In this document: in pieces, positions 16,014 through 35,643 of the stretch | Position numbering within the stretch: position 1 is the first letter of the stretch | How the letters are laid out: every line of letters begins with the position of its first letter | Source of the DNA: Sandaracinaceae bacterium | GTDB taxonomy: Bacteria; Myxococcota_A; Polyangia; Polyangiales; Sandaracinaceae | Reading direction: 5' to 3' | DNA length: 54,932 nucleotides | Assembly (NCBI GenBank): GCA_044220955.1 | Contig: JBGAQA010000040.1 | Span: forward strand, 1-54,932 | Notes under the pieces: model-generated | Database searches by the model: none | Seen by the model: only the letters and a program-made list of their open reading frames with translations | What the model was told of the DNA's origin: nothing | Position numbers and translations under genes: made by a program

Positions 16014-19000
16014 TCAGCGACACTCGCCGCTGGCGCGGCAGGTGAGGCCGGGCCCGATCTGGCTGCAGAACGCGTTGCCGCCGAGCGTCTGGCAGCGCGG
16101 TCCGCAGGCCCCGAGCAGGGAGTAGCAGACCGTGGAGTCGGGCCCGGTGCAGTCGGCGGAGCGGGCGCAGCTGCACCCGAACTCGTCGACGATGAGGTTG
16201 CCGTTGTCGTCGACGCCGTTGCAGCACTCCATGACCTGGGACTGGAAGGGCGCGCAGGAGGTGTCGGCGCAGTCGCTGATGCCGTCGCAGTCGTCGTCCT
16301 GGCCGTTGGTGCACTGCGCGATCGTGGACTCGTCCGGCATGCACATCGAGCACAGGGGCGTCATCCGGCACTGGAAGTCCGCGCAGTCGGTCAGGCCGTT
16401 GCAGTCGTCGTCCTGCCCGTTGCCGCAGATCTCCATCCGCGAGGTGGGCACGCAGCACGCGGGCGTGCCGGTGCAGGCCACGTCCGCGCAGTCGATCGCG
16501 CCGTTGCAGTCGTCGTCGACGCCGTCGTCGCAGATCTCGGGGCCCGTGAAGAAGCAGCACTCCGGCGTGGACGCGCACTCGGGGTCGCCGCAGTCGAAGA
16601 GCTGATCGCAGTCGTCGTCGAGCCCGTTCGAGCAGCGCTCCGGCCCGGTCGCGATGCAGCAGATCGGATCGAACTGGCAGTCGGGGTCGGCGCAGTCGGT
16701 GCGCGCGTCGCAGTCGTCGTCGAAGCCGTTCTGGCAGACGAACTCGCTGAACTGGCACGCCCCGCAGATCGGATCGAACTGGCAGTCGGGATCGTCGCAG
16801 TCGATGAGAGCGTCGCAGTCCTCGTCGAAGCCGGTGTTGCAGATCTCGCCGACGCAGAGGCGGCAGAGGGGGTTCGCCGCGCAGTCCGAGTCGAGGCAGT
16901 CGGTCTGCCCGTCGCAGTCGTTGTCCCGACCGTCACGGCAGCCCGCGCTCTCGTTGGGCAGGCAGCCCGACATGCAGACGGGGTTGCCCGTGCACGCGGG
17001 GTCGTCGCAGTTCACCAGGCCGTTGCAGTCGTCGTCGATGCTCGTCGAGCAGATCTCGAAGGGCAGGCACACGGTGCACGCCGGGCTCCCGGCGCAGTCG
17101 GTGTCGGCGCAGTCGACGATGCCGTCGCAGTCGTCGTCGTGACCGTTGCGGCAGATCTCGGAGGGGGCGCACACGACGCACGCCGGGTGGCGCGCACAGT
17201 CCGAGTCCGAGCAGTCGACGAGCATGTCGCAGTCGTCGTCGCGCCCGTTGGAGCAGGCCTCGCTCGTGCACGTCCGGCACGCCGGGTCGAACGCGCAGTC
17301 CGAGTCCGAGCAGTCCGTGCGGTTGTCGCAGTCCTCGTCGCTGCCGCCGGTGCAGATCTCGCTGGTACACACCCGGCAGCTCGGGTCGAGGGCGCAGTCG
17401 GTGTCGGCGCAGTCGACGATGCGGTCGCAGTCGTTGTCCGTTCCGTCGAAGCAGACCTCGGGCACGGGCACGCACATCGTGCACGTCGGCGTGCCGAAGC
17501 AGTCGGGGTCAGCGCAGTCGCGCACGCCGTCGCAGTCCTCGTCGCGGTTGCCCGTGCAGACCTCGGGCACGGGCGAGCAGACGACGCAGAGCGGGTCGCG
17601 GAAGCAGTCGGGGTCGGCGCAGTCGACGAGCGTGTCGCAGTCGTCGTCGAAGCGGTCGTTGCAGATCTCCGGGAAGCACATGATGCACGCCGGGTCGCTC
17701 CCGCAGCTCACGGTGTCGCTGCAGTCGCTCAGGCCGTCGCAGTCGTTGTCGCGGCCGTCGGTGCAGATCTCGCGCGAGGGCACGCAGCAGAGCGGGCTCG
17801 CCGTGCAGTCCGGGTCGACGCAGTCGAGGCGGCCGTCGCAGTCGTTGTCCCGCATGTCGCTGCACATCTCGACGCCCGTCGGGGTGCAGCAGAGCGTGCT
17901 CCCGGCGCAGTCGGGGTCGGCGCAGTCGGTGAGCGAGTCGCAGTCGTCGTCGCGGCCGTCGCTGCAGAACACCTCGCGTGTCCCGCACATCCGGCACGCC
18001 GGGTCCGTCGTGCAGTCGGAGTCGGCGCAGTCGGCGCGCCCGTCGCAGTCGTCGTCGCCCCCGTTCGCGCACAGGCCCGTCTCGCTCCGCGTGCACATCC
18101 GGCATGCCGGGTCCGCCGCGCAGTCGGGATCTGCACAGTCGAGCAGGCGGTCGCAGTCGTCGTCGCGCCCGTTCGCGCACAGACCCGCCTCCGTCGGCGT
18201 GCAGACGTTGCACGCAGGATCGGCGAGGCAGTCGAAGTCGTTGCAGTCGGCCTGGCGGTCGCAGTCGTCGTCGCGCATGTTCGTGCACAGGCCCGCCTCG
18301 GTCGGTGTGCAGGGCGAGCACCCGGGCTCGCCGGCGCAGTCGGGGTCCGCGCAGTCGGCCAGCGCGTCGCAGTCGTCGTCGCGCCCGTTCGCGCAGCTCT
18401 CCGGCAGGCACCCCGCGCAGGCGGGGCTCGTCGCGCAGGCCGGGTCGATGCAGTCCGTCAGGCCGTTGCAGTCGTTGTCGCGGTTGTCCGTGCAGAGCTC
18501 GGGCGCGCCGGGGTGGATCATCGCGTTCGTGTCGTCGCAGTCGCCTCCGAAGCACGCCTGGGCGACCACGCCGTCTGCGTCCTGATCGCGCTCGAAGAAC
18601 ACGCACGCCCGCGTCCGCTCGTCGCACGCGTCGCTCGTGCAGAGGTTCATGTCGTCGCACGTGACGGGCGCCCCGGCGCCGCAGCCGCGCGTGGCCGAGC
18701 ACACCTCGACGCCGTTGCAGAAGCGGCCGTCGTTGCAGCGGAAGTCGAGCGGCGTCGACGTGCACGCGCGGGCGGCCTCGGTGCACTCGTCGAGCGTGCA
18801 GTCGATCCCGTCGTCACAGCGGGGCGGGGTCCCGCCGGCGCAGACGCCGGCGACGCAGCGCTCGGCGCCGTTGCAGAAGAGTCGATCGTCGCACTGCGCG
18901 TCGGTGTCGCACACCCGCGTCGTGCAGCCCGAGCGCGGATCGCAGGTGCCGCCCGGGCAGCGTCCGTTGTCGGGGACGAATTCGCAGGCCCTCGTCGCCT

Positions 19001-19337
19001 CGAGGCAGCGGTCGTTCGTGCAGTCGACGCCGTCGTTGCAGACGACGTCCATGCCGAAGACGCAGCGGTTCTCGACGCAGCGCTCGGGGCCGTCGCAGAA
19101 GAGGCCGTTGTCGCACTCGGCGTCGCTGCGGCAGATGATCGCGGAGTCGCCGGCGTCGCGTCCGCCGTCCCCCGGGCCCGCGTCCCCGGCGTCCCCGGCG
19201 TCGAGCGCAGGACCGGCGTCGAGCCGCTGCGGGGCCCCATCTCGGAAGTCGTTCAGCGCCGTCCGGCCACAGCCCGCAGCGGCGAGGCCGAGGCCGAGCA
19301 TCGAGAGCGCCGCGAGGCGATGGGTGCGTGGTGACAT
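16014..19337 (-). CDS. Large Cys/Asp-rich repeat lipoprotein (1107 aa)
   Basis: Start ATG 19337 (MSPRTHRLAALSMLGLGLAAAGC). CDxGLFCxGxExC repeats, a DCDD...IHPGAPELC (MopE-related) motif, then 22 C-x4-D[DEN]DC[DN]-x3-[DN]C-x-D-x2/3-C units. Confidence 0.88.
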   Translation of the reverse strand: MSPRTHRLAALSMLGLGLAAAGCGRTALNDFRDGAPQRLDAGPALDAGDAGDAGPGDGGRDAGDSAIICRSDAECDNGLFCDGPERCVENRCVFGMDVVCNDGVDCTNDRCLEATRACEFVPDNGRCPGGTCDPRSGCTTRVCDTDAQCDDRLFCNGAERCVAGVCAGGTPPRCDDGIDCTLDECTEAARACTSTPLDFRCNDGRFCNGVEVCSATRGCGAGAPVTCDDMNLCTSDACDERTRACVFFERDQDADGVVAQACFGGDCDDTNAMIHPGAPELCTDNRDNDCNGLTDCIDPACATSPACAGCLPESCANGRDDDCDALADCADPDCAGEPGCSPCTPTEAGLCTNMRDDDCDRQADCNDFDCLADPACNVCTPTEAGLCANGRDDDCDRLLDCADPDCAADPACRMCTRSETGLCANGGDDDCDGRADCADSDCTTDPACRMCGTREVFCSDGRDDDCDSLTDCADPDCAGSTLCCTPTGVEMCSDMRDNDCDGRLDCVDPDCTASPLCCVPSREICTDGRDNDCDGLSDCSDTVSCGSDPACIMCFPEICNDRFDDDCDTLVDCADPDCFRDPLCVVCSPVPEVCTGNRDEDCDGVRDCADPDCFGTPTCTMCVPVPEVCFDGTDNDCDRIVDCADTDCALDPSCRVCTSEICTGGSDEDCDNRTDCSDSDCAFDPACRTCTSEACSNGRDDDCDMLVDCSDSDCARHPACVVCAPSEICRNGHDDDCDGIVDCADTDCAGSPACTVCLPFEICSTSIDDDCNGLVNCDDPACTGNPVCMSGCLPNESAGCRDGRDNDCDGQTDCLDSDCAANPLCRLCVGEICNTGFDEDCDALIDCDDPDCQFDPICGACQFSEFVCQNGFDDDCDARTDCADPDCQFDPICCIATGPERCSNGLDDDCDQLFDCGDPECASTPECCFFTGPEICDDGVDDDCNGAIDCADVACTGTPACCVPTSRMEICGNGQDDDCNGLTDCADFQCRMTPLCSMCMPDESTIAQCTNGQDDDCDGISDCADTSCAPFQSQVMECCNGVDDNGNLIVDEFGCSCARSADCTGPDSTVCYSLLGACGPRCQTLGGNAFCSQIGPGLTCRASGECR

Positions 19338-20985: not shown

Positions 20986-22131
20986 TCAGGGACAGGCGGG
21001 CAGCACCATCGGGTCGGGCGAGGCCCACTCGACGCTGTTCTGCCAGAAGCGAGGGATCGGGGGCATCGAGGCCCACTCGCTGTCGAACTCGATCCACTCG
21101 TCGCCGAAGAGCAGCGCACGACCCGAGCCGATCGGCCCGGCAGCGCCCACGACGTCGGCGCCGATCGTCGCCATCGGCAGGAAGGTGCCCGCCATCGACG
21201 CAGGGATCGTGACGCGCAGGCCGCCGTTGAAGGTGACCGGCGGGAGCGTCCCCCCGGCCCCGTCGTCGGTGGTCGGGTGCGAGAGGAGCGTCGCCGGGCC
21301 GTCGATCGGGCCGGCGGCGAGGTCGTAGCTCGGTCCGAGCGAGGCGAGCAGCGAGACGTGCCGGTCCGCCGTCGCGCCCGAGTCGTGGCCGGTCATCGCG
21401 ATCAGGGCGCCGCCCCCGTTCACCCACGCCGCGAGCACGTCGGCCTCTTCGGCGGTGTAGAGGCGCTGCAGCCAGTCGACCACCACGAGGTCGAACGTCT
21501 CGAGCTCCTCGACGTGGAGCGTGCCGGCGCCTGCCGCGGTGTGGAAGCGCGTGACGATCGCGCCCTGCATCTCGAGCCACGCCTGGAAGTCCGACGACGC
21601 CAGAGCGCCGGGCGCGCCCATGATGCCGATCCGCCGGCAGCCGTAGAGCGTCATGCCGGCGTCGCCCGTCCCACCGCCGGTGCAGGCGCCCCACGCGCCG
21701 AACTCGCTCACGCCCTCGCACGTCATCTCGCCCCACGCGCAGCGCGGTGTGCTGGGGTCGGGCCGGCCGGGGAGGCAGCGCGCCGTGGAGCCGGGTACGC
21801 AGGTGCAGCTCTCGTCGACGTGTCCGTCGCAGTCGTCGTCCACGCCGTCGAAGCACGCCTCCGTGGCCGCGCACGTGACCGGGATGCAATTCGCGTCCAC
21901 CTGCGCGGCGTCGCGCGGCGTGATCGGCGCGTCCGGCAGGTCGCCGTCCGCGGGCGGGAGCACGGGCGCGTCGACGGCGGCGTCGATCGGAGCCGAGCAG
22001 CGCCCGTCGATGCAGACCCTTCCCCGCGTGCACTCGCTCGTCGCGCGGCAGGTAGACCCCGCGGGCGCGGGCGAGCACTCGCAGCCGAGCCCGAGCGCGG
22101 CGAACGAGAAGAGCAGGATCGCGCGTCTCAC
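20986..22131 (-). CDS. Lipoprotein with a DDDCDG repeat and a C-terminal alpha/beta (GATase/DUF4350-like) domain
   Basis: GTG 22131 overlaps the upstream stop (GTGA). Lipobox GLGC, CFDGVDDDCDGHVDE, LETFDLVVV, WVNGGGALIAMTG, GRALLFGDEWI, FWQNSVEW. Confidence 0.75.
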   Translation of the reverse strand: MRRAILLFSFAALGLGCECSPAPAGSTCRATSECTRGRVCIDGRCSAPIDAAVDAPVLPPADGDLPDAPITPRDAAQVDANCIPVTCAATEACFDGVDDDCDGHVDESCTCVPGSTARCLPGRPDPSTPRCAWGEMTCEGVSEFGAWGACTGGGTGDAGMTLYGCRRIGIMGAPGALASSDFQAWLEMQGAIVTRFHTAAGAGTLHVEELETFDLVVVDWLQRLYTAEEADVLAAWVNGGGALIAMTGHDSGATADRHVSLLASLGPSYDLAAGPIDGPATLLSHPTTDDGAGGTLPPVTFNGGLRVTIPASMAGTFLPMATIGADVVGAAGPIGSGRALLFGDEWIEFDSEWASMPPIPRFWQNSVEWASPDPMVLPACP

Positions 22132-23966: not shown

Positions 23967-24074
23967 CCAGCGATGCTCGGCCTGCCCGGCTGCGCAGGCA
24001 AGAGGCCCGTGCACGTCGCGGCGCCACGCCTCGCGGCGCGGCCCCGAGTCGCGCACTCTGGTACCGTCGCGCGC

Positions 24075-24929
24075 ATGGAGACTCGGCCCTTCGGCCCCAC
24101 GGGGCGCTCTCTCTCGGTGATCGGGCTGGGCGGCATGCCGATGTCGATCGAAGGAAGGCCCGACGAGGCGCAGAGCCTGCGGACGATCCACGCGGCGCTC
24201 GACGCCGGGATGACCTTGATCGACACGGCGAACGTCTACTGCCTCGACGACGCCGACCTCGGCCACAACGAGCGGCTGATCGCCAAGGGGCTCTCGTCCT
24301 GGTCCGGCGCGCGCGACTCGATCTTCGTCGCGACCAAGGGGGGCCTCGCGCGGCCCGGCGGGGCGTGGCGCTCTTCGGCGCGGCCCGAGGCGCTCCGCGC
24401 GGCCTGCGAGCAGAGCTCGAGGGCGCTCGGGACCGAGCGCATCTGGCTCTATCAGCTCCACGCGCCCGATCCGAGCGTGCCGCTCGAGGCGAGCGTCGAG
24501 GCGCTCGCGAGGCTCCGCGACGAGGGTAGGATCGAGCACGTCGGGCTCTCGAACGTGAGCGTGCAGGAGATCGTGCGCGCGAGCGCGATCGTCCCGATCG
24601 TGAGCGTGCAGAACCGCATGAACCCGCACGACAAGCGTTCGATCGCGAACGGCGTGCTCGCGCACTGCGAGTCGCACGGCATCGCGTTCCTGCCCTACAG
24701 CCCCGTCGGCGGCGGGCGGGGGCGCGCGAAGATCGCCGGCGACGCGACGCTCGGTCGCATCGCCGCCAAGCACGGCGCGACCCCGCCGGAGATCGCCATC
24801 GCCTTCTGCGCGCGTATCTCCACGGTCTGCTTCCCGATCCCCGGCGCGAGTCGGCCCGAGAGCGCCCTCTCGAGCGCGCGCGCGGCGGCGATCCGGCTCG
24901 ACGCGAGTGACCTCGCGGCGCTCGCGTGA
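24075..24929 (+). CDS. Aldo/keto reductase
   Basis: SVIGLGGM, IDTANVY, VATKGG, LYQLH, IEHVGLSN, SVQN, FLPYSP, PIPG. Confidence 0.93.
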   Translation: METRPFGPTGRSLSVIGLGGMPMSIEGRPDEAQSLRTIHAALDAGMTLIDTANVYCLDDADLGHNERLIAKGLSSWSGARDSIFVATKGGLARPGGAWRSSARPEALRAACEQSSRALGTERIWLYQLHAPDPSVPLEASVEALARLRDEGRIEHVGLSNVSVQEIVRASAIVPIVSVQNRMNPHDKRSIANGVLAHCESHGIAFLPYSPVGGGRGRAKIAGDATLGRIAAKHGATPPEIAIAFCARISTVCFPIPGASRPESALSSARAAAIRLDASDLAALA

Positions 24930-24942
24930 GCGCGACGCCACC

Positions 24943-26862
24943 ATGCCGACCGAGCGCAGCGACGAGGCGACGACCGAGCAGACGCCGAGGCTCGCCCCGG
25001 AGATGACGCCCGCCGAGGCGCCCACGCTCGTCGCGCCAGGCACGCCCGAGGGCGCGCGCGTCGGGGCGGCCGACGTCGCGATCCACGTGCCCGGGCGCTA
25101 CATCGGCGGCCGCGAGCTCGGGCGCGGCGGCATGGGCGTCGTGCACGCGTGGAGCGATCCCCAGATCGGCCGCGAGATCGCGGCGAAGGTGCTCCTCAAG
25201 GACGATGCGGTGTCGCGCCGGCGTTTCATGCACGAGGCGCGCACGCAGGGCTCCCTCGCGCACCCGGCGATCGTGCCCGTGTACGACCTCGCGATGCTCG
25301 AGGACGGGCGGCCCTTCTTCACCATGCAGCGCGTGAAGGGCCAGACGCTCGCGTCCATCTTCACGAGCGAGGGCGGGCGCTTCTCCACGCGCAAGCTGCT
25401 CGAGGCGCTGGCGCGCATGGCGCTCGCTGTCGAGTTCTCGCACGAGCGCGGCGTCGTGCACCGGGACCTCAAGCCCGCCAACCTGATGCTCGGCGACTTC
25501 GGCGAGGTGTACGTGCTCGACTGGGGCATCGCGCGGCGCATCGAGGAGCGCGCGTCGGTCGTGCCCGGCGTCAGCGGCACCGAGCCCTCGACCGACGAGG
25601 TGCTCGGCCTCACCGCCACCGGGACGCTGCTGGGAACACCGGGCTACATGTCGCCGGAGCAGGCGCGCGGGGCGATCGACGAGGTGGACGCGCGCTCGGA
25701 CGTGTACGCCCTCGGCTGCGTGCTCTTCGAGATCCTGGCCGGCGAGCCGCTCCACAAGGGCACGCGCGTCACCGAGCTGGTGATGAGCACGCTCGGCGGC
25801 ATGGTCGATCGCAGCCCCGCACGCCGTGCTCCCGGCAAGGACGTCCCTCCCGAGCTCGACGCGCTCTGCCTCTCCGCGACCGAGGCCGACAAGAGCGCAC
25901 GCCTCGAGTCGGTGCGCGCGCTGGCCGAGAGCCTCGAGCGCTACCTCGAGGGCGATCGCGACGTCGAGCTGCGCATGAAGGCGGCGCAGGAGCACGCGCG
26001 CAGCGCCGCCGGCCTGGCGAACGCGGCGCTGGGCAAGTCGCGGAGCAGCGCGCCGAAGACCGACGCCGAGATGCTCGACGCCCGGCAGAGGGCCCTCGCC
26101 GAGATCGGACGCGCGGTCGCGCTCGTGCCCGAGCACCCGGTCGCGCTGGCCGCGCTGGTCGCGCTGCTCACCGAGCCTCCCAAGCGGACCCCCGACGAGG
26201 TCCGCATCGAGCTCGAAGACCTGCGTCACTCCCACGTCAGGGTGGGCGGCCGCACCGGCGCTGCGGCGTATGGGGCCGCTGCCGCGCTGCTCGCGACGCT
26301 GCTCGCGGTGGATCGCGTCCCCTTCGGCGCCACGTCGATCGTCTCGGAGGTGCTGCTGATCGGCGCGGCGCTCACCAGCTTCGGCTTGTCACGCGTCGCG
26401 CGGCCCGCGCGCTATGCCTCTCTTTCGATGCTCGTGATCAGCACCCTCGCGCTCGCCTCGCTCACGACGCTCTTCGGTCCGTTCATCGCGACGCCGACCG
26501 CCCTCGCGGTGAACGCGCTCGTCTTCCTGGTGTCGAACGAGCGCGCGCTGCGCGGCCCCATCTTCGCGCTCGGCGCCGCGGGCGTCGTGCTGCCGATGGC
26601 GCTCGAGGCGAGCGGGATCGTCGCCCCGTCGTTCCGGTTCGAGGGCGGCAACATGGTCCTCTTGCCGCGCGCCCTGCCCTTCGAGCCCTCGTCGCTGATC
26701 GTGCTCGCGGTCGTCTTCGTCGCCACCGTCGTCCTGGGCGCCGCGACGCTCGGACCCTTCCGCGACGACCTCGATCGAGCGCTGCTCGAGAGCCGCGTGC
26801 TCGCGTGGCAGCTTCGCCAGTTCGTGCCGACCCGATCGCGCACTCCCAAGGACCCAGGATGA
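24943..26862 (+). CDS. Hanks-type Ser/Thr protein kinase with a C-terminal multi-pass membrane domain
   Basis: LGRGGMG, AAK, HRDLKPANLM, VLDWGIA, GTPGYMSPEQ, DVYALG, then about 6 TM segments. Confidence 0.93.
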   Translation: MPTERSDEATTEQTPRLAPEMTPAEAPTLVAPGTPEGARVGAADVAIHVPGRYIGGRELGRGGMGVVHAWSDPQIGREIAAKVLLKDDAVSRRRFMHEARTQGSLAHPAIVPVYDLAMLEDGRPFFTMQRVKGQTLASIFTSEGGRFSTRKLLEALARMALAVEFSHERGVVHRDLKPANLMLGDFGEVYVLDWGIARRIEERASVVPGVSGTEPSTDEVLGLTATGTLLGTPGYMSPEQARGAIDEVDARSDVYALGCVLFEILAGEPLHKGTRVTELVMSTLGGMVDRSPARRAPGKDVPPELDALCLSATEADKSARLESVRALAESLERYLEGDRDVELRMKAAQEHARSAAGLANAALGKSRSSAPKTDAEMLDARQRALAEIGRAVALVPEHPVALAALVALLTEPPKRTPDEVRIELEDLRHSHVRVGGRTGAAAYGAAAALLATLLAVDRVPFGATSIVSEVLLIGAALTSFGLSRVARPARYASLSMLVISTLALASLTTLFGPFIATPTALAVNALVFLVSNERALRGPIFALGAAGVVLPMALEASGIVAPSFRFEGGNMVLLPRALPFEPSSLIVLAVVFVATVVLGAATLGPFRDDLDRALLESRVLAWQLRQFVPTRSRTPKDPG

Positions 26863-28187
26863 GCCAGCCCTCGATGCCCCCCTCCTCGTCCGGCGCCCTC
26901 GCGGCGCCGCAGCGGCGTCCGCGCGATCGGCCGGCGAACGTGAAGCTGGTGCTCGTGATGGTCGGGCTGCCCGCGCGGGGCAAGACGCACATCGCGCGGC
27001 GCGCGGCGCGCTACCTCACCTGGCTCGGCTACAAGACGCGCGTGTTCAACGTCGGGAACTACCGGCGCGAGCGCCTCGGCAGCCAGAAGGACCACTCGTT
27101 CTTCGATCACGAGAACGTCGACGCGAGGGCGGCGCGCCGCACGGTCGCCATGGAGTGCCTCGACGATCTCGTCACGTGGATGGGCGAGGGAGGCGAGATC
27201 GCGCTCTACGACGCGACGAACTCGCAGGTCGAGCGGCGCAGCGTGGTGGCGGAGCGCTGTCGATCGGCGGGATTCCAGGTCGTGTTCGTCGAGTCGGTGT
27301 GCGAGGACCCGAGCATCATCGAGAGCAACATCCGGCAGACCAAGCTCCACATGCCCGACTACGCCGGGATGGACCCGGACGCCGCCGTGCAGGACTTCCG
27401 CGAGCGCATCGCGCACTACGCGGCGGTGTACGAGCCGGTCGGCGAGAGCGAGGGCAGCTTCGTCCGCATCATCGACGTGGGCCGCAAGCTGGAGATCCAC
27501 CGCATCCAGGGCTACCTCGCCTCGCGCCTCGTCTACTTCTTGATGAACAACCACCCCATCCCTCGGCCCATCTACCTGACGAGGCACGGCGAGAGCCTGT
27601 TCAACGTCGAGGGACGGATCGGCGGCGACGCGGGGCTCGCGCCCAGGGGTGAGGCCTTCGCGTCGCGCCTGGCGCGCTGGTTCGAGACGGAGCGGCCGAC
27701 CCCGGACCTCGTGGTGTTCACGAGCACGCTCGTGCGGACCGTCGACACGGCGCGCTGGCTCGGCCGTCCGACGGTCGAGTGGCGGGCGCTGGACGAGATC
27801 TACGCGGGCGACTGCGACTCGATGACGTACGACGAGATCCGCGAGCAGTACCCCGGCGTCGTCGAGGCACGCTCGCACGACAAGCTGAGCTACCGGTATC
27901 CTCGGGGCGAGAGCTATCTCGATGATCACCGGCTCGAGCCGGTGATCATCGAGATCGAGCGCGAGCGCTCCCCGGTCCTCGTCATCGCGCACCAGGCGGT
28001 GCTGCGCGCGCTCTACGCGTACCTGATGGACAAGCCGCCGCGCGAGTGCCCGTTCCTTCCGATGCCGCTGCACACCGTCATCCAGCTCACGCCGACGACC
28101 TACGGCTGCGACGAGGCGCGCTTCGAGCTCGGCCCGGCCGCGGACACGCGCGACAGCAAGAGCCCACCCGCGCCGCCCGCGGCATGA
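26859..28187 (+). CDS. Bifunctional 6-phosphofructo-2-kinase / fructose-2,6-bisphosphatase (PFKFB-like)
   Basis: Kinase half: VMVGLPARGKT, VFNVGNYRR, YDATNS, FVESVCED, PDY, DFRERIAHY. Phosphatase half: IYLTRHGES, TSTLVRT, WRALDEIYAG, YRYPRGESY, RLEPVIIEIER, VIAHQAVLRALYAY, PLHT. The ATG overlaps the kinase stop (ATGA). Confidence 0.92.
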   Translation: MSQPSMPPSSSGALAAPQRRPRDRPANVKLVLVMVGLPARGKTHIARRAARYLTWLGYKTRVFNVGNYRRERLGSQKDHSFFDHENVDARAARRTVAMECLDDLVTWMGEGGEIALYDATNSQVERRSVVAERCRSAGFQVVFVESVCEDPSIIESNIRQTKLHMPDYAGMDPDAAVQDFRERIAHYAAVYEPVGESEGSFVRIIDVGRKLEIHRIQGYLASRLVYFLMNNHPIPRPIYLTRHGESLFNVEGRIGGDAGLAPRGEAFASRLARWFETERPTPDLVVFTSTLVRTVDTARWLGRPTVEWRALDEIYAGDCDSMTYDEIREQYPGVVEARSHDKLSYRYPRGESYLDDHRLEPVIIEIERERSPVLVIAHQAVLRALYAYLMDKPPRECPFLPMPLHTVIQLTPTTYGCDEARFELGPAADTRDSKSPPAPPAA

Positions 28188-28855
28188 GGCGGCGAGTCGT
28201 CGAGAGCGCGCTCCTCTCGCTCGCCTGGCTCGGGCCGCTCCTGGTCGCGCCCGGCGCGCTCTCGTCCGCGCGCGTCTGGGGGGGCGCGCTCGCGCCGGCG
28301 CTGCTGCTCGTCGCGGGCGTGTTCGTCGGCGCTCGGCGCGGCCCGCGACGCGGCGTCGTCCCGCTCTTCGCCACGGCTGGCGTGGCGCAGCTCTGGGCGT
28401 GGCTCGCGGGCGACGCCGCCGGCGCGGCCGCCATCTACACGCTCTCGCTGCTCGGCTGCTGGCTCCTCGTCTGTCCGCTCGCCCGCACGCTCGAGCCCGC
28501 CGACGCGCTGCAGTCACGCTTCCTCGTCACCCTCGTGGCCGATGCGACGGCGATCCTGGGGTCCGTCTCGCTCGCCGTGGTGTTCGACCTCCGGGTCGCG
28601 CTCGGCGGCGCGGTGGCGGTGGTGTTCGCGCTGGTGGGGGTGCGCTACCCGGTGGCTCGCGTCCGCGCGGGCATCACCGTGCTGGCGGGCGGCTTGCTCC
28701 ACGCGTGGCTGGGCCTGCCCGGGCTGATGGAGCTCGCCCGCGATCCCGCCTCGGCCGCGATGGCGCTCGACGAGCTCCTCCGGAGGTCGGCGGTGCTGGC
28801 GAGCGCGGCCGTGCTCGCCGCGATCGTGCTGAGCGCCGGCGACGAGCGAAGATGA
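28184..28855 (+). CDS. Integral membrane protein of unknown function
   Basis: ATGA overlap with the PFKFB stop; about 7-8 hydrophobic segments. Confidence 0.7.
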   Translation: MRRRVVESALLSLAWLGPLLVAPGALSSARVWGGALAPALLLVAGVFVGARRGPRRGVVPLFATAGVAQLWAWLAGDAAGAAAIYTLSLLGCWLLVCPLARTLEPADALQSRFLVTLVADATAILGSVSLAVVFDLRVALGGAVAVVFALVGVRYPVARVRAGITVLAGGLLHAWLGLPGLMELARDPASAAMALDELLRRSAVLASAAVLAAIVLSAGDERR

Positions 28856-28926
28856 GCACGATGAACGAGATCAGACACCGCACGACGAACCTCGCGTAAC
28901 GGAAGTTTCGCGGGTAAGCTGCTTGC

Positions 28927-29349
28927 GTGGGCGCAACCGACGAAACCCTCGACCTCTTCACGCGCAGCATGGAGCGATGCCTGCTCGCCCCGTCGTTCCT
29001 CGACCGCTTCTACGCGCGCTTTCTGCTCTCGAGCGACGTGGCCGCGCGCCGGTTCGAGAACGTGGATCTCAAGCGGCAGGCGGCGGTTCTCCGGGCGTCG
29101 CTCTATCACGTGATGCGCGCGGCGCGGGGCGCGAGCGACGGCATGCAGCACCTCGAGGAGATCGCGGCCAAGCACTCCAAGCGTGGGCTCGACATCCGCC
29201 CGGCCGAGTACAAGCACTGGCTCGAGTGCTTGATCGCCGTCGCGCGGGAGACGGACCCTACGTTCGACGCGCCGACCGAGGCGGCGTGGCGGCTCCACAT
29301 CGGCAACGCCATCGGCGTCATGCTCGCGCGATACGAGCAAGCCGGCTGA
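28927..29349 (+). CDS. Single-domain globin
   Basis: FLDRFYARF (B10 Tyr), RRFENVD (CD1 Phe), KRQ (E7 Gln), IAAKH (F8 His), LDIRPAEYKHW, EAAW. TAAGCT 6 nt before the GTG. Confidence 0.88.
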   Translation: MGATDETLDLFTRSMERCLLAPSFLDRFYARFLLSSDVAARRFENVDLKRQAAVLRASLYHVMRAARGASDGMQHLEEIAAKHSKRGLDIRPAEYKHWLECLIAVARETDPTFDAPTEAAWRLHIGNAIGVMLARYEQAG

Positions 29350-29479
29350 CGGGCCCCGGCGGGCCCGATCGACAGCGTTAGCTAGCGCTGGATTTCGCTC
29401 GAGCGAGATCGCACCGGATCCTCGCCCGAGCGCTCAAGCCTCCGCGTCGAACGCCCGATGGTCCGTGGGAGGTGAGGCC

Positions 29480-31282
29480 ATGGACCTGACGGGGCTTCGA
29501 GGTGCGCGCCCGGCCGCGGTGATGCTCGCGTGGCTGGCGGTCGCGGGGTGCGGCGCGGACGCCCCCGCCGCGCAGGGCCCGGTCCAGCAGGTCGACGCCG
29601 GCCACGCGGACGCCCCCGCTCCGGGCCTCGACGCAGGCCCCCTCGCGAGGAGGGACTGCGCGGGCGGATGCGTCGTGGCTGGCGAGTGCCTGGCCGACGG
29701 TGCGAGCCCTGCGGGGCAGCCGTGCGTGGTGTGCGACGCAGGCGCCGCCCCCGCCGCGCTCGTCCCCGCCGACGGCCGGCACTGCGACGACGGTGCGTTC
29801 TGCACGGTCGCCGACGCTTGCCGAGGCGGCGCGTGCGTCGGCCAGCCGCGGGACTGCTCGGACGAGCTCGCGTGCACGACGGGGGACGTCTGCGACGAGG
29901 CCCGAGACAGCTGTGCTCCTGGGACGTCGAGCTGCGCGGCCGAGCAGCTCTGCGGGGCGAGCGGCTGCGTCACGAGCTGCGCCGGCTGCGTGGTCGGCGG
30001 CGTCTGCGTGCCGGCCGGCGCGCGCTCGACCTCGGGCTGCTCCGTGTGCGACCCGACGTGGTCGACGACCGCGCTGCGCCCGGTGGACGGCCTGCCCTGC
30101 GACGACGGCGCCTTCTGCACGACGAGCGACGCTTGCGCGGCCGACGTGTGCACCGGCGTGGCGCGCGACTGCTCGGACTCGGTCTCGTGCAGCGGCGTCG
30201 AGACGTGTGACGAGTCCGTCGACGCGTGCGTGGCCGGGGTCTCGAGCTGCCCGCCAGAGCAGGTCTGCGACGCGGCGACCGACCGGTGCGCGCCGAGCTG
30301 CGCAGGCTGCCTGATCGGCGGTGTGTGCGTCGCCGACGGCGAGCAGAGCCCGGCGACGCCCTGCGAGATCTGCGACGTCGCCCGGGCGACCGACCGCTAC
30401 AGCCCGAACGACGGGGGGCCCTGCGACGACGGCTGGTACTGCACGCTCGGCGACGTCTGCGCTGGCGGCGTCTGCCGCGGGCTCGAGCGCGACTGCTCCG
30501 ACCGCATCGCGTGCGATGGCGTCGAGACCTGCGACGAGACCCACAGGACGTGCGCGCCGGGCGAGCCGACGTGCGCCAGCGGCGACACCTGCGACGTCGT
30601 GGCCGACGCGTGCGTCGCGACCTGCGACGGCTGCGTCGTCGACGGGCGCTGCGTGCCCGCCGGCGCGGAGATGCCGGACGTGCCCTGCTGGGTGTGCGAC
30701 CCGGCGCGAGCCGTCGATCGCTTCAGCCCGAATGACGGCCACGACTGCGACGACGAGCGCTACTGCACCGTGGGGGACGTGTGTGCGGCCGGCGTGTGCG
30801 TGGGCGCGCCGCGCGCGTGCGACGACGGCGTCGCGTGCGACGGATCCGAAGCGTGCGACGAGGGCGCGCGCGCGTGCGTCGGCGGCACCTCGACGTGTGA
30901 CCCGGGGACCGTCTGCGACGCGAGCGCGGACGCCTGCGTCGCGACGTGCGCGGGCTGCGAGATCGACGGCGTGTGCTTCCCGGACCACACCGCCGCCCCC
31001 GGCCAGCCCTGCTCGATGTGCGACGTCGCGCTCGACGCCCACCACTGGACCGCCGCGACGGATGTCGAGTGCGACGACGGCCTCTTCTGCACGGAGAGCG
31101 ACCGCTGCGTGGCGGGCACCTGCGTGGGCACCCCCCGCGCCTGCGGCGACGACGTCTCGTGCAACGGCGTCGACGCGTGTGACGAGGAAGGACGCGCGTG
31201 CATCTCGAGCGTGTCCCCCTGCGCCGAGGGCGTCGAGCTCTGCGACCCGGTCGCCGACGCGTGCGTGCCCGTCGGGGGCTGA
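29480..31282 (+). CDS. Cys-rich lipoprotein made of five ~108-aa tandem repeats
   Basis: SD GGAGGTGAGG, lipobox VAGC, 5x (CxGC[VLE][VI]xGxC...CxxCD...CDDGx[FY]CTxxDxCxxGxCxGxxRxCxDxxxCxGx[ED]xCDE...C). Confidence 0.85.
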   Translation: MDLTGLRGARPAAVMLAWLAVAGCGADAPAAQGPVQQVDAGHADAPAPGLDAGPLARRDCAGGCVVAGECLADGASPAGQPCVVCDAGAAPAALVPADGRHCDDGAFCTVADACRGGACVGQPRDCSDELACTTGDVCDEARDSCAPGTSSCAAEQLCGASGCVTSCAGCVVGGVCVPAGARSTSGCSVCDPTWSTTALRPVDGLPCDDGAFCTTSDACAADVCTGVARDCSDSVSCSGVETCDESVDACVAGVSSCPPEQVCDAATDRCAPSCAGCLIGGVCVADGEQSPATPCEICDVARATDRYSPNDGGPCDDGWYCTLGDVCAGGVCRGLERDCSDRIACDGVETCDETHRTCAPGEPTCASGDTCDVVADACVATCDGCVVDGRCVPAGAEMPDVPCWVCDPARAVDRFSPNDGHDCDDERYCTVGDVCAAGVCVGAPRACDDGVACDGSEACDEGARACVGGTSTCDPGTVCDASADACVATCAGCEIDGVCFPDHTAAPGQPCSMCDVALDAHHWTAATDVECDDGLFCTESDRCVAGTCVGTPRACGDDVSCNGVDACDEEGRACISSVSPCAEGVELCDPVADACVPVGG

Positions 31283-34200: not shown

Positions 34201-35643
34201 ATGTCGAACCTCCCCCGTCTCGGTCGCTACGAGCTCATCCGCAAGATCGCGGCCGGGGGCATGGCCGAGATCTTCCTCGCGCGGCAGTGGGGCGCCGGCG
34301 GCTTCTTCCGCGACGTCGTCGTCAAGCGCCTCTTCCGGCACCTGGCCGAGCACCCGACGCAGCTCCGGATGTTCCAGGACGAGGGGCGCCTCCTGAGCGA
34401 GCTCTCGCACCCGAACATCCCGCAGGTCTACGACGTCGCGTTCTCGGACGGCTACTGGTACATCGCGATGGAGCACGTCGACGGGCCGACGCTCGCCGAC
34501 CTCTGGCACCGCGGCGCCCGCAACGGCCACCCGATGCCGCTGGCGGTCGCGATCGCCGTGGTGCTGCAGATCTGCGAGGCGCTGCACCACGCGCACGAGC
34601 GAGCGGACCGCGGGCACACGCCGCTGCGCATCGTGCACCGCGACGTCACGCCGCAGAACATGATGCTCACGCGTGACGGCGTGATGAAGCTGATGGACTT
34701 CGGCGTCGCCCTCACGGCCGCGCGCCGCGAGACCGAGAACACCGGCGCCGTGCGCGGCACCGTCGCCTACATGGCGCCCGAGCAGGTCCGAGCGCGCCCG
34801 CTCGACAAGCGCGCCGACGTCTTCGCGCTCGGCGTGGTCCTCTACGAGCTCACCACGGGCACGCGCCTGTACCGCGGGAGCGACATCCAGATCATGACGC
34901 AGGTCGTCGAGCAGGACGCGCCGCCGCCGTCGAGCAAGGCGCCCGACTACCCGGCCGATCTCGAGCAGGTCGTGCTCGAGGCGCTGAGCCGGGACCGCGG
35001 CCGGCGAACACCCAGCGCCGCGCACCTCGCCTGGAAGCTGGAGGAGCTGGCGATCCGACGCGGCATGCTCGTCGGCCCGCGCACCGTCGCGCGCTACGTG
35101 AGCCAGACGATGCCCGCCGAGCGCGTGCAGGAGCATGCCCTCGCGATGGTGGCGACGTCGCAGTCGATGGAGGCCGCCGCGCGGCAGGCGGAGGCGTCAC
35201 CTTCGGAGTACGACGATCCCGGGCTCATGGACGACCTGCAGCTGCTCTCGCTTCCGCCCGAGCAGGCGGGCGGTGAGGGCGCGCTCGACCCGCTCGATCT
35301 CCCGATCGAGCCCGACGCGCAGGACCGGATCTCCGCACCCCTGCCGCTCGTCACGAAGTCCTGGCCAGGTCGCCCCGTGCCGCCGGAGCCCATGATCGAG
35401 GATGGCGACGAGGCGCTCGACGAGCTGCTCCGCTCGGAGCCCCCGCCGAGGATGGACGGCGAGCCGGCGGGCCCGAGCGAAGATCTGGTGCTGGACGCGT
35501 TCGACGAGGACCCGCGTGGGCAGCGGCCCGTGGTGCTCCTGGGGGATCGGCAGCGCAAGACGGGACGGCCGCCCCCCGTCGACACGGGCGAGTACATGAG
35601 CGACCTCGAGCGCCGGCTCGAGGGGGACGAAGAGGACCGCTGA
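34201..35643 (+). CDS. Cytoplasmic Ser/Thr protein kinase with an acidic/Pro-rich tail
   Basis: IAAGGMAEIF, VVVK, HRDVTPQN, DFGVA, GTVAYMAPEQ, DVFALG. No TM segment. Confidence 0.93.
   Translation: MSNLPRLGRYELIRKIAAGGMAEIFLARQWGAGGFFRDVVVKRLFRHLAEHPTQLRMFQDEGRLLSELSHPNIPQVYDVAFSDGYWYIAMEHVDGPTLADLWHRGARNGHPMPLAVAIAVVLQICEALHHAHERADRGHTPLRIVHRDVTPQNMMLTRDGVMKLMDFGVALTAARRETENTGAVRGTVAYMAPEQVRARPLDKRADVFALGVVLYELTTGTRLYRGSDIQIMTQVVEQDAPPPSSKAPDYPADLEQVVLEALSRDRGRRTPSAAHLAWKLEELAIRRGMLVGPRTVARYVSQTMPAERVQEHALAMVATSQSMEAAARQAEASPSEYDDPGLMDDLQLLSLPPEQAGGEGALDPLDLPIEPDAQDRISAPLPLVTKSWPGRPVPPEPMIEDGDEALDELLRSEPPPRMDGEPAGPSEDLVLDAFDEDPRGQRPVVLLGDRQRKTGRPPPVDTGEYMSDLERRLEGDEEDR

Follow-up and report, generated by a model that had tools for sequence, protein, structure and literature searches.

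The stretch of DNA analysed here (the window) comprises 54,932 nucleotides of contig JBGAQA010000040.1 from a Sandaracinaceae bacterium of the Myxococcota (assembly GCA_044220955.1), and it carries at positions 26859..28187 of the plus strand a gene resembling PFKFB, the enzyme of eukaryotes that combines 6-phosphofructo-2-kinase with fructose-2,6-bisphosphatase (PFK-2/FBPase-2). The gene was delimited by translation, Pfam and PDB sequence searches and a frame plot of GC content at third codon positions (GC3); the open reading frame (ORF) is open throughout, without internal stops, and encodes 442 amino acids. A 6-phosphofructo-2-kinase domain (6PF2K, PF01591) occupies residues 26-234 (26934..27560, +), with an E-value of 7.1e-75 and 251.6 bits against a cut-off of 27 over positions 10-222 of the 223-position profile, and a search of the source genome itself gave the same location. 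It is followed by a fructose-2,6-bisphosphatase domain of the histidine phosphatase family (His_Phos_1, PF00300) at residues 238-418 (27570..28112, +; E 8.3e-33, 114.1 bits against a cut-off of 21.7). A first-pass annotation of this DNA, made from the letters alone, had claimed that the PFKFB signature residues are present in the eukaryotic domain order, and translation recovered all of them: the Walker A sequence GLPARGKT (residues 36-43), FNVGNYRR (63-70) and DATN (118-121) in the kinase half, then RHGE (242-245), LVRT (291-294), LDEI (311-314) and AHQA (377-380) in the phosphatase half of the same chain. The profile search which that annotation had proposed as a check thus returned both expected families. 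We take the Walker A pattern GxxxxGKT and the DATN-type Walker B to be the catalytic motifs of the kinase, and H243 (RHG), H378 (HQA) and E313 (DEI) to be the catalytic triad of the phosphatase, as in the PFKFB literature.

The search against PDB sequences retrieved 16 distinct chains with E <= 1e-10. The best match was human PFKFB3 (E 6.8e-121), aligned in a single colinear stretch over query residues 25-419, followed by PFKFB2, the liver enzyme and the rat testis enzyme, and the chains of isolated FBPase-2 domains (1c7z and 1fbt) matched the phosphatase half with E 1e-56. In the PDB alignment, H243, H378 and E313 fall on identical residues of PFKFB3. No NCBIfam model reached its cut-off for the protein, the best being TIGR03162 with 74 bits against 162.9. 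The protein has the full length and both domains of a eukaryote-like PFK-2/FBPase-2, and its gene is native to the bacterium. Its fold is settled by 50% identity to solved structures.

Compared with animal PFKFB1-4 (PDB 6IBX, 2AXN, 5HTK, 1K6M and 1BIF), the window protein has the same domain order, is colinear over residues 25-419 (E 1e-116 to 7e-121) and has the Walker A, DATN, RHG, DEI and HQA motifs in common with them. It differs in consisting of the catalytic core only, without the long N- and C-terminal regulatory tails, and the eukaryotic representatives considered below, of 358-1093 amino acids, are in many cases longer. Its LxRT motif has an arginine that aligns with a serine in the PFKFB3 chain, at a position which presumably tunes the strength of the phosphatase. 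The hosts differ as well, since the bacterium has no duplicated eukaryote-type 6-phosphofructo-1-kinase (PFK-1). Yeast PFK26/27 and FBP26 represent monofunctional types of the same family, and Michels and Rigden are said to have described in 2006 monofunctional relatives in unicellular eukaryotes in which catalytic residues of one domain have been lost, whereas the window protein keeps both catalytic sets. In P0121, an MMETSP marine eukaryote transcript of 1069 amino acids, two full PFK-2/FBPase-2 units stand in tandem on one chain (profile positions 9-415 at residues 68-485 and 6-411 at residues 597-1037).

Conservation of the two active sites was assessed in an alignment of 110 eukaryotic rows with 49 from the myxobacterial cluster, of which 46 belong to named genomes or proteins. 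All 49 myxobacterial-cluster rows keep K42, R69, R70, D118, T120, N121, K162 and Y168 of the kinase and R242, H243, R293 and E313 of the phosphatase, and H378 is kept in 48, the remaining row having a gap; these invariant columns hold the residues that are in the majority among the 110 eukaryotic rows. In the window protein, agreement with the eukaryotic majority extends on the kinase side to R69, R70, R93, R126, R127, K162, Y168, R183, Y187 and Y191 and on the phosphatase side to R293, Y324, R338, K342, R346, Y353 and R383, basic and aromatic residues which, we presume, lie around the sugar-phosphate sites, some of them in contact with substrate. Because both sites are kept in myxobacterial sequences that have diverged to 48-72% identity, both activities can be argued to be under selection, and kinase and phosphatase activity are probably both kept in the myxobacterial cluster. 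R93, an arginine in 107 of the 110 eukaryotic rows and in the window protein, is a leucine in nine of the 49 myxobacterial-cluster rows, and a sub-lineage may thus have altered substrate binding on the kinase side.

Bacterial homologues had been described in the first-pass annotation as sporadic, a description that did not hold, given that the gene is lineage-wide in parts of the Myxococcota. Of 41 related genomes searched, 28 have the 6PF2K domain; the PFKFB gene is in 22 of the 24 other genomes of the family Sandaracinaceae, and the domain in five of 16 single genomes from the order's other families. Among 401 genomes sampled evenly from the phylum, 82 passed the Pfam 6PF2K cut-off with a strong family pattern, one family being positive throughout (26/26) while another gave only weak P-loop matches (3/34). 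When one genome per prokaryotic species was searched, at least 600 pattern matches were obtained, at least 591 of them encoding a relative, and the best 80 of these relatives were all myxobacterial-type records, including the complete genomes of Sorangium cellulosum So ce56, other Sorangium strains and Minicystis rosea as well as draft genomes of Chondromyces apiculatus and Polyangium. Orthologues 55-88% identical to the window protein occur across family and phylum; those of S. cellulosum So ce56, other Sorangium strains, Sandaracinus amylolyticus, Chondromyces, Minicystis and Polyangium, at 57-72% identity, have equal length and architecture. Several homologues, among them those of Sorangium and Sandaracinus, are already named '6-phosphofructo-2-kinase/fructose-2,6-bisphosphatase' in NCBI records. 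Judged by these alignments, the window gene is one more orthologue of a branch already annotated in relatives, from which it differs in that only the window genome has a Ser/Thr kinase gene inserted beside it and a lesion at 27919-27930, both described below.

Within this distribution, the gene lies about 46-55 kb from the start of the record in 15 of 15 complete Sorangium chromosomes among the matches listed (L047-L062), so that its place close to the record start is fixed. Two divergent Myxococcota copies, L126 (G291:C33) and L127/P0152 (G107:C3), are 48-49% identical to the window protein, and genome G291 has a second, weak 6PF2K match besides L126. Stand-alone bacterial 6PF2K proteins were considered as possible ancestors and rejected: a search with residues 26-234 among 394 candidate proteins shorter than 243 amino acids gave 190 matches, and those listed lie mostly on short contigs or are partial, that is, they are fragments.

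Regulation by fructose-2,6-bisphosphate (Fru-2,6-P2) is termed eukaryote-specific in passages of PMC12873801, and likewise in passages of PMC9721465, which name Desulfovibrio desulfuricans as the one bacterial exception; for the eukaryote-specific origin, both cite the 2006 bioinformatic review of Michels and Rigden. A literature search combining PFK-2 and myxobacteria found no relevant paper, and the function of the gene in bacteria seems to have been tried by no one, although it is common and annotated there. For the window alone the gene is an ordinary finding; the wider significance is that the enzyme of a supposedly eukaryote-only signal is kept through a large bacterial clade. Because Sorangium, Sandaracinus and other myxobacteria that can be cultivated share a complete, conserved synthase/phosphatase, whether bacteria use the signal and which enzyme is its target become questions that can be addressed in the laboratory, and the same conservation opens the question of where the eukaryotic system came from.

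We favour, with moderate confidence, the reading that the gene makes and destroys Fru-2,6-P2 as a signal whose likeliest receiver is class I fructose-1,6-bisphosphatase (FBPase). Product, signal role and target are all matters that we infer from sequence. The N-terminal P-loop kinase domain would transfer a phosphate from ATP to C-2 of fructose-6-phosphate, yielding Fru-2,6-P2, and the C-terminal histidine-phosphatase domain would remove the C-2 phosphate via a phospho-histidine formed on the RHG histidine, so that the balance of kinase and phosphatase would set the level of a dedicated signal metabolite. This signal would inhibit class I FBPase as a substrate analogue, and such inhibition would move carbon from one direction to the other between gluconeogenesis and glycolysis. 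One of the three enzymes of the phosphofructokinase (PFK) family encoded in the source genome could also be affected, though this has no support.

The choice of target was guided by the complement of candidate receivers in the source genome. Of its three PFK-family genes, one scores 296.7 bits with the model of the bacterial ATP-PFK subfamily (cut-off 253), one is a long ATP-PFK matching the equivalog NF005301 (587 bits against 400) and the third is under all cut-offs. The genome encodes a single class I FBPase (E 2.2e-70 with PF00316; 480.8 bits with NF006778, cut-off 368), and a search of it for a GlpX-type FBPase found none. Of the 82 genomes in the phylum sample that bear the PFKFB gene, 75 have class I FBPase, compared with 140 of the 319 without it. 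Eukaryotic class I FBPase is inhibited by Fru-2,6-P2 at its active site. From the co-occurrence together with this inhibition, class I FBPase follows as the most economical target, and among the enzymes predicted from the genome it is also the most plausible one and the sole textbook-type target present.

Several points weigh against the proposal of a Fru-2,6-P2 signal received by class I FBPase. The kinds of PFK known to sense Fru-2,6-P2 are the duplicated eukaryotic PFK-1 and the pyrophosphate-dependent PFK (PPi-PFK) of plants, and neither was found in the source genome at its cut-off: the best score to the eukaryotic model (TIGR02478, 6PF1K_euk) was 222.8 bits against 708.4, and scores to the PPi-PFK model (TIGR02477, PFKA_PPi) were 55.8-77.3 bits against 588. 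The association with class I FBPase is a lead and not a test, because related genomes are not independent, and the 140 genomes mentioned above carry the FBPase without a PFKFB gene. That Fru-2,6-P2 inhibits class I FBPase of bacteria too is a presumption, on which a search directed at the E. coli enzyme found nothing. In addition, the allele in the window has an aspartate in a hydrophobic helix position by the GESY motif, which, if it is a true strain variant, may weaken the phosphatase half. The long ATP-PFK (NF005301) was rejected as a partner, given that a hand count found it in eight of the 82 bearing genomes and in 65 of the 319 others, that is, without association. The circuit suggested by the first-pass annotation stands in part: because both active sites are conserved in a native bifunctional enzyme it is plausible, but no PFK reaches the eukaryotic or PPi-dependent cut-offs.

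The missing sensor PFK would also be expected if the protein had kept the fold and chemistry of the family but acted on another sugar phosphate or bisphosphate, or served ordinary metabolism or repair instead of signalling. The genomic context is compatible with such a role, in that neither of the neighbours kept within the genus, which encode an aldo/keto reductase and a membrane protein, is a glycolytic gene, and the context varies between genera, so that position does not tie the gene to glycolysis. We nevertheless regard a change of substrate or role as rather improbable, since the arginine, lysine and tyrosine columns around both sites that are invariant in eukaryotic PFKFBs are equally invariant in the bacterial rows, and 50% identity to enzymes of known specificity usually means the same substrate. 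The strong similarity to eukaryotic proteins could, on the other hand, be taken to mean that the DNA comes from a contaminating eukaryote, that the assembly is chimeric or that a eukaryote passed the gene on very recently, readings to which we assign a negligible probability. GC content is 68-79% in every 1-kb window of the 54.9-kb contig; the GC contents of the gene at codon positions 1, 2 and 3 are 0.67, 0.47 and 0.95, the last within the GC3 range of six neighbouring genes (0.915-0.956), and its lower overall GC is due to codon position 2, i.e. to amino-acid content. Both ends of the gene overlap the adjoining genes by ATGA. The source genome (7.5 Mb in 301 contigs, 87.9% complete) holds a single PFKFB copy, and the locus was recovered in Logan-assembled contigs from four public runs (X1-X4) of activated sludge and bioreactor metagenomes belonging to four studies, although X1 may be the window's own source sample and is then not independent. 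The junction between the upstream kinase gene and PFKFB (26859) is spanned by contigs of three studies (X1, 25639-27486; X3, 25642-27376; X2, 26507-29494), and the junction between reductase and kinase genes by contigs of X1 and X3. Uniform GC, matching GC3, the ATGA overlaps and the bridging contigs exclude contamination and chimerism for practical purposes, in agreement with the argument of the first-pass annotation, and, taken with the orthologues at 55-88% identity across family and phylum, they refute a very recent transfer as well.

The same contigs bear on whether the enzyme of this particular strain is effectively kinase-only or phosphatase-impaired through a real mutation that disrupts the start of a conserved helix, as could be proposed from a local lesion in the phosphatase domain (27919..27930, +; three substitutions and two deletions, one of 2 bases and one of 1 base, for a net change of -3 nt). 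At residues 354-357 the window allele reads SYLD-DHRLEP, while nine of nine close relatives aligned, including one that is 99% identical (P0002), read SYRDVIRRLEP; in protein and DNA alignments alike, L-D-(gap)-D-H thus stands in place of R-D-V-I-R right after the GESY motif. The column of the window's aspartate is mostly hydrophobic in bacteria and eukaryotes (47 of 49 myxobacterial-cluster rows have Ile, Val or Leu there, and 97 of 110 eukaryotic rows have Ile or Val), contigs of X1 reproduce the window form at a depth of 11-15, and there are yeast and protist isoforms which have lost one of the two activities. However, the window form was seen in X1 only, the run that is possibly the source sample, and its contigs end exactly at the lesion (27926-27945), in keeping with a mixed site. 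The canonical form is found in P0002 and in the contigs of three other studies (X2, X3 and X4). Moreover, five differences within 12 bases of a gene that is otherwise about 99% identical look like a sequencing or assembly fault, and all catalytic residues are still present. Either the strain truly differs here or the sequence has a local fault, and the species as sampled elsewhere carries the normal sequence at this site; we consider an impaired phosphatase unlikely. The earlier description of the enzyme as intact holds for the reading frame, both domains and all catalytic motifs but not for residues 354-357 of this allele.

The origin of the gene was examined with the best 150 representatives at 50% clustering, whose identity to the window protein is 40-53%. 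Those identified are eukaryotes from a wide range of supergroups: duck PFKFB3, Diptera, Podila, Acytostelium, Volvox, Phytophthora, Cantina, Ectocarpus, Rhodelphis, Diphylleia, Pygsuia, Amoebidium and one more ichthyosporean-type entry. After removal of 38 of 197 rows whose match was split by insertions or which were fragments, a FastTree analysis of the remaining 159 rows placed all 46 Myxococcota rows in one group of 50, together with four further rows, of which one is the same as a myxobacterial ORF. With the LG+C20 model and 78 rows, 29 of 30 Myxococcota rows and two others formed one group, with a support of 91 in the Shimodaira-Hasegawa-like approximate likelihood ratio test (SH-aLRT), attached through a very short branch (0.05) to a eukaryotic backbone that was not resolved. 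Backbone supports were 77-93 in both trees, none of them starred; the long bacterial row L126 stood apart from the other bacterial rows in the LG+C20 tree and in the quick tree of the 53-row set below, and the named neighbours belong to several supergroups (Rhodelphis, Volvox, Acytostelium, Phytophthora, Cantina and Diphylleia). When all 24 Myxococcota rows of a 53-row set were constrained together under LG+G4, the log-likelihood was 11.66 above that of the free tree, and the grouping was not rejected by the approximately unbiased (AU) test (p-AU 0.634; trees unrooted). The data therefore fit a single transfer, after which the gene descended for the most part vertically within families. The direction of transfer between bacterium and eukaryote is not given by the FastTree or LG+C20 trees, which are unrooted with an unresolved backbone.

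Divergence within the phylum (down to 48% identity) is as deep as the distance to the eukaryotes (40-53%). Given that the bacterial rows can be joined in a single clade (p-AU 0.634), the short branch and this within-phylum depth, the trees are compatible with a scenario in which the Myxococcota have a working Fru-2,6-P2 circuit from early in the phylum and the enzyme reached eukaryotes in one ancient transfer with the myxobacterial side as donor, which we put forward as a long shot. Sterol synthesis has been proposed as a trait that eukaryotes took from a myxobacterium-like partner, and if the scenario were true, the 'eukaryote-specific' regulator of glycolysis would be one more trait from such a partner.

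In the window, the PFKFB gene belongs to a run of plus-strand genes which in the codon-position plot comprises the reductase, the kinase, PFKFB, a hydrophobic ORF, a globin-like ORF and a 605-aa ORF. The aldo/keto reductase gene (23973..24929, +) matches Pfam Aldo_ket_red with E 1e-58 over about 24120-24926, its candidate starts being 23973, 24009 and 24075. A gene for a Ser/Thr protein kinase of 651 amino acids follows (24907..26862, +; Pkinase, E 5.5e-35), and its stop overlaps the PFKFB start. On the other side, the PFKFB stop is overlapped by the start of a hydrophobic ORF of 223 amino acids (28184..28855, +) with several predicted membrane segments, for which Pfam and NCBIfam gave no family match; beyond it lies a small globin-like ORF of 140 amino acids (28927-29349, +; Pfam Globin, E 1.5e-6, above the 22-bit cut-off).

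Part of this arrangement is shared within the genus. Three same-genus genomes (G002, G004 and G005) have the order aldo/keto reductase, PFKFB, membrane ORF, without a kinase gene between, and their membrane ORFs are 71-76% identical to that of the window; G001 has neither reductase nor kinase beside PFKFB and has kept only a 42% identical version of the membrane ORF, and in other genera none of these neighbours is kept. The best homologue of the kinase in the genus, at 61% identity, lies on another contig of G001, the remainder being about 41% identical. Since the kinase is absent from the locus in same-genus genomes, its overlap with PFKFB is a recent feature of this lineage, and the kinase was rejected as a conserved regulator, as G002, G004 and G005 are without it at the locus and its closest homologue lies elsewhere. 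The translational coupling to the neighbours noted in the first-pass annotation is thus borne out by the ATGA overlaps at both ends, but the coupling to the kinase is not conserved within the genus. By analogy with the phospho-control of animal PFKFBs, the adjacent kinase may add phosphorylation control in this strain, outside the conserved system.

The kinase itself has several hydrophobic segments in its C-terminal half (from about residue 450), which is probably membrane-embedded, and the source genome has 15 or more matches to the kinase with E <= 1e-40. At the C-terminus of the PFKFB protein, past the end of the eukaryotic core, residues 431-442 (28148-28184) include an R-D-S-K-(S/T)-P-P sequence kept in 10 of the 10 genus-level sequences aligned; next to a kinase gene, this Ser-Pro tail could be a phosphorylation site, which is pure conjecture. 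A second Ser/Thr kinase gene (480 amino acids; 34201-35643, +; Pkinase, E 1.5e-37) lies further along the window. MopE-type putative metal-binding motifs (PF11617) were detected in two large minus-strand ORFs, at 16014-19334 and 20986-22101, one above and one below the cut-off.

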